This document shows, one piece after another, positions 26,935 through 28,330 of a stretch of DNA of 64,000 nt (the stretch's first letter is position 1; every line of letters begins with the position of its first letter). The notes beneath the pieces are model-generated. The model was not told the DNA's origin. It did no database searches and saw only the letters and a program-made list of their open reading frames with translations. The translations under genes were made by a program, and so were the position numbers. Where the stretch lies: sequence record PZ179883.1; one strand, 5' to 3'. The stretch is from a phage.

Positions 26935-27714
26935 TTAATTAAAAATATATACTTCATCAGTTCCATTCTTTTCTTTGGAATGATATATGTTAAAGACGTA
27001 TTTTTTATTAAGATGCTTAACATTATATTTTTTAGACCATTCTTTAAGAAGAGTGTTTTCCTTTCCGTGATGCTCTAAAACATTCGACAGTCCAAATTTT
27101 ATTCCTCTGTCATTTAAAGAATCTAAAAGATTTAAAAGGTCTTTTTCTTCTTCTTCTGACCAAAATTTATTATAATCAGCAACTGTTATAAGATATGGAG
27201 GGTCCACATATACAAAATCGCCGTCTAGAATTTTGACATCTTTAAAATGCAATGAACTAAAGATTATTTTATCACAATTTTGTTTAAAGTGATTAAAGCG
27301 TTTTTCACTATTTTTGTTTATAGTTCTTTTTCCAAACGGAGTAGTAAAATTTCCTTTATCGTTTATACGAATCATATTACTAAACCCGTGAAAATGAAGA
27401 ACATAAAGTAAAAGAGGATCTCTAGTTTTATTATAATCTTCACGTAATTTCAAAAACTCTTCTTTTGATGTTTTTGATAGTTTGTATTGCTTTATTACTT
27501 TTAAAACGTCATCCCATGATACATTAATAAGACGCTTATACATTTCAATAATTGGTTCTTGAATATCATTGGCCAATACAGGACCATTGACGTTCAAAGA
27601 CACTGATAAACCTCCACAAAATAAATCCACGAATCTGTCATATTTTGGAAAATGAGGCTTAAGTTCAGGTAATAATGACTGTTTATTACCTGTATACGCG
27701 ATAGCTCCTAGCAT
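26935..27714 (-). CDS. dam: DNA adenine methyltransferase Dam (259 aa)
   Basis: DPPY motif (VYVDPPYLI) and FxGxG-like SAM motif (DLFCGGLS); 259 aa as T2/T4 Dam. Confidence 0.9.
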
Positions 27715-28274
27715 TATATTCTCTCATTTATTGCAGCAAAAAACGAATTATATAATTCTTCATCATATGTATTTGATAGTAATACTAACACGTTTTGTGA
27801 TTTAGCATATTCATTAAACCTTGCTTGGATGGTTGGATTATCAGTAAATGATTCTCTTTTTGTCCATTTATTACGTGGATAATATCCGCATGGCAAAAAA
27901 TCTAATATCATCAATGACACAGGGTTTTCAGTTTTTGTGTATTCTTTTAATTTCTCTTTATCTTCTAAATATATTCCAACCGAATCAATAGCTGTACCTC
28001 CACCAACTTGGTGTTTAATTTCAATTATATGCTTTTTACCGTTGCGAGAAATAACAATATCAAATCTTCTAGTACGCTTCTTAGTTATAAAATTAGAACA
28101 AAACAAATTATTTGATTTTTCAGTATCATCGGTTAAAACCATTTTTTCTTGATAACTAACTGAACAATCAGTGAAATATTCTTTTACTTTATTAAGTATG
28201 AAATTTTCAACTACGGCAGATATTTTATATGAATCTCCGTTTAAAGCCATTTCATGCACAATTTTATTAATCAT
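27714..28274 (-). CDS. Hypothetical protein with PD-(D/E)xK nuclease-like motif (186 aa)
   Basis: Motif [19 protein letters not shown] (D-x13-E-I-K); stop overlaps the dam start; SD GAGGATGA; own early promoter. Confidence 0.55.
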
Positions 28275-28296
28275 TATATCATCCTCAGCAATTTAT

Positions 28297-28330
28297 TTTA
28301 TAATACCATAACAAGCTGAGAAAGTAAACA
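28297..28330 (-). promoter_or_regulatory. T4-type early promoter upstream of the 186-aa ORF and dam
   Basis: GTTTAC (rc 28324-28329) and TGGTATTAT (rc 28299-28309). Confidence 0.55.

Follow-up and report, generated by a model that had tools for sequence, protein, structure and literature searches.

What does the small gene directly upstream of dam encode in T2-like phages, and does it bear on the presence of a GATC methylase in these phages? Few DNA methyltransferases have been studied as thoroughly as T4 and T2 Dam, yet to our knowledge the purpose of such an enzyme in a phage with fully hypermodified cytosines has never been settled. We analysed a 64,000-nucleotide stretch of phage DNA (sequence record PZ179883.1), called the window below. 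A preliminary description of the window had quoted a 186-aa open reading frame (ORF186) with a D...ExK peptide upstream of dam, and a stop codon of this frame overlapping the dam start. Both the frame and the peptide are present exactly as described, and the overlap consists of one common base in TAATG.

Organization of the ORF186-dam locus

The source of the window is a T2/ACG-C40-type Tequatrovirus. Over 1.3 kb around ORF186, the window is 99.8% identical to phages ECO07P4 and ES19 and 99.7% identical to ACG-C40. Genes on the minus strand follow one another in the order 41, dmd, 61.4, sp, 61.2, 61.1, 61, ORF186, dam, 56. The following features were located:

28571..29599, minus strand: gene 61, primase
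28386..28411, minus strand: terminator-like hairpin and U-run, 3′ of gene 61 (fold z -3.4)
28300..28329, minus strand: T4-early-type promoter-like site, GTTTACT, 17 nt, TGG-TATTAT (from the sequence and the JB75 annotation)
28282..28286, minus strand: Shine-Dalgarno sequence GAGGA, 7 nt ahead of the ORF186 ATG (from the sequence)
27714..28274, minus strand: ORF186, putative restriction endonuclease (R) gene, 186 aa, ATG start
27712..27716, minus strand: TAATG stop/start overlap of ORF186 TAA and dam ATG
26935..27714, minus strand: dam, N6-adenine (GATC) DNA methyltransferase of the Dam family, candidate M half, 259 aa (TIGR00571, 1.4e-69)
26915..28362, no strand assigned: full extent of the promoter, ORF186 and dam cassette, 1.45 kb (from blastn against the RB32 locus and the RB32 gene table)

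At the junction, which reads ...ATATAATGCT..., the ORF186 TAA occupies 27716..27714 and the dam ATG 27714..27712. The dam gene already carries this label in T2, T4 and further GenBank records.

An early promoter of T4 type had also been proposed immediately ahead of ORF186. A site with the corresponding features is indeed found there, with a -35 element GTTTACT (28329..28323), a 17-nt spacer and an extended -10 element TGG-TATTAT (28308..28300). A generic sigma-70 scan of this AT-rich region gave no excess over shuffled sequences (10 sites versus 12.2 expected), that is, a chance-level result. Because of this, the promoter call rests on the T4-early-type features, on the position of the site after the terminator-like hairpin and on the record of phage JB75, which carries an independent promoter prediction at this place upstream of ORF186. 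We consider it plausible that ORF186 has its own promoter. The terminator-like hairpin itself comprises 11 base pairs, and none of 200 shuffled sequences was equally stable. It would separate transcription of 41-61 from that of ORF186-dam.

A second possible hairpin of 8 bp (UCUCAGCU / GCUGAGGA, 28282..28322, minus strand) surrounds the -10 element, and the Shine-Dalgarno sequence of ORF186 takes part in its pairing; its fold is only weakly better than that of shuffles (z -1.9). Such a hairpin would hide the ORF186 ribosome site on transcripts reading through from gene 61 and not on those started at the local promoter, an arrangement that resembles known T4 regulatory designs.

The interval between gene 61 and ORF186 also holds a conserved 66-aa open reading frame on the plus strand (28374..28574). 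It is convergent with gene 61, overlaps the end of that gene by 4 nt and contains the terminator-like hairpin on its opposite strand. It corresponds to phrog_2024, is RB32ORF030w-like and is labelled "putative membrane protein" in several phage records. The flank that carries it was matched in essentially all 504 Tequatrovirus records, including those in which the cassette is missing.

Fold, active site and relatives of the ORF186 protein

The D...ExK string by itself is at chance level. Therefore, the reality of the gene rests on the selection acting on it, on its match to a protein family and on its fold. Pairwise comparison of eight Tequatrovirus alleles gave dN/dS values of 0.01-0.12 for ORF186 and of 0.00-0.03 for dam; with respect to phage EP01, ORF186 shows 15 synonymous and 5 non-synonymous changes. 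The protein matches phrog_8706 (5.7e-116), a family to which PHROGs assigns no function. Judged on these sequence data, ORF186 is an expressed-looking gene under strong purifying selection.

An AlphaFold2 model built from seven homologues reached a pLDDT of 80.7 and a pTM of 0.80. Its elements are alpha(15-33), beta(38-47), beta(67-77), beta(80-88), alpha(96-113), beta(119-124) and a C-terminal alpha/beta extension, and the alpha-beta-beta-beta-alpha-beta core of the PD-(D/E)xK superfamily is present among them. Inspection of the model thus confirms a PD-(D/E)xK restriction-endonuclease fold, as the nuclease-like motif had led the preliminary description to propose, rather than a non-nuclease fold. 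The candidate catalytic residues are encoded as follows:

28208..28206, minus strand: codon of E23
28061..28059, minus strand: codon of D72
28022..28020, minus strand: codon of E85
28016..28014, minus strand: codon of K87

In the model, E23 lies on helix 1, D72 on strand 2 and E85-x-K87 on strand 3. These four residues, together with H88, Q89 and a GTAIDS loop, are shared by every one of the eight full-length homologues, the most distant of which have 26-31% identity. The active site is likely intact.

The top fold matches of ORF186 are orthodox type IIP enzymes; Can2, McrC, Bax1, Vsr and XisH are also found among the matches, whereas MutH-type enzymes are absent from them. The 186-aa model contains no winged-helix or other methyl-reader domain. 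Since the PD-(D/E)xK fold serves many jobs, as the latter five matches recall, ORF186 could be a nuclease-fold protein that is catalytically irrelevant or takes no part in restriction: a DNA-binding factor modulating Dam, or an enzyme that, like MutH, nicks or repairs DNA at hemimethylated GATC. The overlapping frames would fit stoichiometric co-expression, as for a complex, and T4 and T2 grow well despite a deleted or altered ORF186. The conservation of the catalytic residues and the absence of MutH-type structural matches argue against such a role, which we regard as very unlikely.

The ORF186 family is very small. A search of 5.8 billion clustered proteins returned 10 matches, and a profile search of 1.84 billion representatives returned 11; IMG/VR contributed two further loci only. 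No bacterial protein was found among the relatives whose loci were examined, and these searches led to no homologue of characterised function. A sequence search of the PDB with ORF186 gave no match, and a search of NCBIfam gave noise only. In the record of phage Shinka, ORF186 is labelled "putative DpnII restriction endonuclease"; the other records listed call it hypothetical, and our literature searches found no paper on it. The protein had previously been left outside the characterised T4 families, in agreement with the deletion of the gene from T4 and with the empty PHROGs function entry. Outside the family, the next viral fold match is BFVD entry K4I5X0, a 205-aa protein of the Gelderlandvirus Salmonella phage STML-198 (Foldseek E 2e-4, 16% identity).

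Two metagenome proteins, P0008 and P0010, were dropped from the family. Each joins the C-terminal part of ORF186 to an unrelated N-terminus, with PF01370 in one and PF18343/PF03590 in the other, and they are most likely assembly chimeras.

Linkage with dam, mobility and one-sided loss

Comparative genomics provides the strongest evidence for a pairing of ORF186 with Dam. At every examined locus, the ORF186 homologue lies directly upstream of a gene for a PF02086 (Dam-class) methyltransferase, and the two genes abut or overlap, by 0, 7, 20 or 35 nt. Three positions were observed. Tequatrovirus and one relative with 55% identity carry the pair between 61 and 56; in T4-like phages of Klebsiella it is flanked by denB and ndd, and in a metagenomic T4-like contig it stands immediately upstream of rIIA. 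The identities of the two partners to the window pair drop in step (R/M 55/72, 42/61, 35/54 and about 41/52%). In RB32-type genomes, about 20 bp of unrelated sequence replace window positions 26915..28362, as seen by blastn. Comparison of these loci shows that the R/M pair moves and diverges as a unit. As in type II restriction-modification (R-M) systems, the candidate endonuclease gene stands beside a methyltransferase gene and both are inherited jointly.

The patchy distribution of the cassette would also fit a free-standing homing endonuclease that cuts relatives lacking the cassette, at the empty site or close to it, with dam as its cargo. We give this explanation little probability: a homing enzyme has no need for the same methylase family in the same fused layout at three sites, down to about 30% identity, the top fold matches are orthodox type IIP enzymes, and the T-even homing enzymes known to us are GIY-YIG or HNH proteins.

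We then considered whether the interval between gene 61 and dam always carries ORF186, a point raised with the preliminary description. The primase flank was matched in 504 phage records, of which 184 contain dam, covered over at least 80% in 183 of these 184. In 149-155 of the 184 dam records, ORF186 is covered over at least 80% of its length. The rule is broken by T4 and about 34 other records, which kept dam and only the last 85 nt of ORF186. Alignment of the window with T2 and T4 placed the ends of the T4-type deletion in two copies of an 8-bp direct repeat:

28342..28349, minus strand: ATCACAAA, upstream copy of the direct repeat, one end of the T4-type deletion
27794..27801, minus strand: ATCACAAA, copy within ORF186, other end of the T4-type deletion

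The 548-bp deletion between these copies took away the promoter and about 158 codons of ORF186. Other losses were observed next to an intact 780-nt dam: a different N-terminal deletion in KarlGJung (Bas37), a frameshift in G4500 and a truncation in ESCO58. R is therefore gone with M kept in at least four lineages, some of the apparently independent ORF186 frameshifts being possibly sequencing errors. Conversely, no record with ORF186 and without dam was seen among the phage records surveyed. A restriction-modification pair is expected to behave in this way, losing R while M is retained and never the other way round, and such loss is the accepted origin of orphan methylases. The "orphan" T4 Dam is indeed encoded by the same gene at the same locus, with 96-97% nucleotide identity to the window dam; its upstream partner is the deletion remnant in T4, whereas in the window this partner is intact. 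On this comparison, T4 Dam looks like the relic of a restriction-modification module whose nuclease half was deleted by T4. Amino-acid differences between T2 and T4 Dam showed no link to the presence of R.

The 1988 T2 dam paper reportedly described 536 bp inserted 5′ of dam in T2 as compared with T4. The GenBank record of that sequence holds ORF186, unannotated. T2, SV76, phage 107, ES19 and the T4 remnant share a 1-nt deletion in a T-run (window 27730..27745; T2 ORF 1815..2374) that swaps the last eight ORF186 residues (FAAINERI) for LLQ. Upstream of the -35 element, a further 9 bp are missing in T2. From its sequence, the ORF186 copy of laboratory T2 may be impaired.

Candidate restriction-modification function and GATC avoidance

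The best Pfam match of ORF186 is the DpnII profile (PF04556), with an E-value of 0.0045 and 16.8 bits, below the 23-bit gathering cut-off, and Pfam BanI gave a similar score. DpnII was matched independently by four of nine family members, with a best E-value of 8.3e-5, and the PADLOC model REase_II, which describes type II endonucleases, matched ORF186 at 9.1e-5. In HHalign comparisons with genuine DpnII homologues, all carrying PF04556 and one of them named DpnII by NCBI, E-values of 2-4e-4 were obtained at probabilities of 34.6-46.5%, that is, below 50%, over 78 columns of the catalytic core. This weak match aligns the Glu of the helix (E23/E152, ORF186 first here and below), the Asp of the RFDxVI motif (RFDIVI/RFDFVI), the strand with IE(I/V)x (IEIK/IEVN) and a loop rich in Gly (GGGT/GSGS). 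A DpnII model of moderate confidence (pLDDT 70) shows the elements of the C-terminal domain in the ORF186 order, including an Asp after strand 4.

Differences are also clear. DpnII has 288 aa and ORF186 186 aa; ORF186 corresponds approximately to DpnII residues 140-288, lacks the N-terminal helical domain of about 140 residues and does not show the full DpnII architecture of N-terminal helical and C-terminal catalytic domains (about 280 aa). It carries ExK where DpnII has ExN. Its cassette, with R preceding M, resides in a lytic hmC phage, whereas DpnII is encoded on a bacterial chromosome. Membership of ORF186 in the DpnII family is not established on this basis. The likeness is still suggestive because T4 Dam and the cognate methylase of DpnII are members of one Pfam family; DpnII and MboI (type IIP, PF04556, with DpnM) thus also have a Dam-family GATC methylase as partner. 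In the comparison with MunI / EcoRI-type (alpha-class) type IIP enzymes, identity is only 13%. Their AATT-recognition motif could not be recognised by eye in ORF186, and a different specificity is expected.

Overall, we lean towards the view that a compact mobile R-M cassette, type II-like and built of promoter, R and an overlapping M, Dam, passes among T4-like phages, with ORF186 as its endonuclease half. The functions listed in the preliminary description ranged from a methylation-sensitive or methylation-dependent nuclease to an anti-defence element. Linkage at three positions, co-divergence and repeated loss of R favour a methylation-sensitive nuclease paired with Dam; the methylation-dependent and anti-defence options are less favoured.

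The protein would be a Mg2+-dependent nuclease, probably homodimeric, that cuts at or around unmethylated GATC. Its sites would be GATC or a superset covered by Dam methylation, so that the phage's own DNA would be shielded by Dam. Cleavage would most likely leave 5′ four-base overhangs, as with DpnII and MboI; the structural neighbours of ORF186, which we take to be enzymes leaving 5′ overhangs, fit a /GATC cut. The DNA of the E. coli host already carries Dam methylation, and the likely targets are therefore foreign DNA molecules in the same cell that have little or none of it. Candidates are co-infecting phages, including the dam-less majority of the T-even relatives, and cutting these would help the cassette to spread through break repair, with a homing-like gain.

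The biological target is also the weak point of the R-M reading, given a Dam-methylated host and phage DNA with glucosylated hmC. The cytosines of T-even phages are hydroxymethylated and glucosylated, and glucosyl-hmC may by itself block a GATC enzyme, which would make protection by Dam needless. The order of the genes, with R ahead of M under an early promoter and no controller protein, is uncommon where protection has to precede cleavage. This order need not be dangerous, since the incoming phage DNA is already modified. Further points against the R-M reading are the DpnII likeness below the Pfam threshold and below 50% in HHalign, the missing N-terminal domain, and a GATC depletion that does not track the cassette (see below).

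The same features of host and phage could be read through a DpnI-like logic. ORF186 would then be a methylation-dependent nuclease cutting G(m6A)TC in cytosine DNA and degrading the host, with glucosyl-hmC phage DNA immune and phage Dam topping up the target. The early promoter common to ORF186 and Dam would suit this role, GATC-methylated host DNA would be a plentiful target, and the carriers with checked neighbours look like hmC phages, as illustrated by a DenB-like gene beside the Klebsiella cassette. However, the weak profile links go to methylation-sensitive type IIP enzymes (DpnII, BanI) and not to DpnI-like or type IV enzymes, and the 186 aa have no room occupied by a methyl-reader or winged-helix domain. 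In addition, a phage methylase would be dispensable in a Dam+ host, and the explanation therefore does not account for the constant methylase linkage or for the asymmetry of R loss and M retention. We find it improbable to a high degree.

The R-M reading has a precedent in the chloroviruses. There, the pair R.CviAI/M.CviAI (GATC) provides a lytic virus with its own GATC endonuclease and adenine methylase, and unmethylated host DNA is a known target of the virus-encoded endonuclease. The likeness is one of description: the chlorovirus host is unmethylated, whereas the phages with ORF186 grow in a Dam+ host and have hypermodified DNA themselves. This kind of system is known; the ORF186 family is uncharacterised and its setting, a lytic hypermodified phage in a Dam+ host, is unusual. 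If Dam is the M half of a mobile R-M cassette, the question of the T-even Dam becomes directly testable: T4 has deleted R, and about 150 sequenced T2-like phages keep it intact. A new, very small family of restriction enzymes would be gained as well, together with a strictly lytic phage that has its own restriction system; plausible uses of such a system are competition among phages infecting one cell and selfish spreading of the cassette.

A narrower form of the R-M reading, which we hold to be unlikely, makes ORF186 a restriction enzyme acting between T-even phages. It would cut GATC containing hmC or glucosylated cytosine, and only Dam adenine methylation would protect. In mixed infections, the dam-less T-even majority would then be destroyed or undergo gene conversion, and this would supply the long-sought function of T-even Dam.

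GATC counts were examined as a possible fingerprint of nuclease specificity. In the window, GATC is the most depleted palindromic 4-mer, with 69 occurrences observed versus 207 expected (O/E 0.33). The same 4-mer ranks as most depleted in the stretches analysed of RB32 (0.42), RB69 (0.31), S16 (0.13) and JS98 (0.05). In contrast, of the 16 palindromic 4-mers, GATC shows the strongest over-representation (1.15) in the Krischvirus RB49, which also has E. coli as host. No flanking-base effect on the depletion was found, and tblastn detected no ORF186 homologue in the genera of JS98 and S16. GATC avoidance in enterobacteriophages was known before and has been ascribed to MutH (PMC5014478). Because the depletion is unlinked to the cassette, being equal or stronger in cassette-less relatives, and in view of the MutH attribution, it was rejected as a fingerprint and is not counted as evidence of specificity. 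In the narrower, unlikely reading above, an enzyme cutting hmC or glucosylated GATC could add to the extreme avoidance observed in hmC Tevenvirinae (O/E 0.05-0.42) and not in RB49 (1.15).

RB49 displays a pattern of its own. Between its positions 60001 and 110000, GGCC is strongly depleted (O/E 0.37) and GGATCC is absent, with 8.8 occurrences expected. This pattern points to different restriction pressures on a cytosine-DNA phage.
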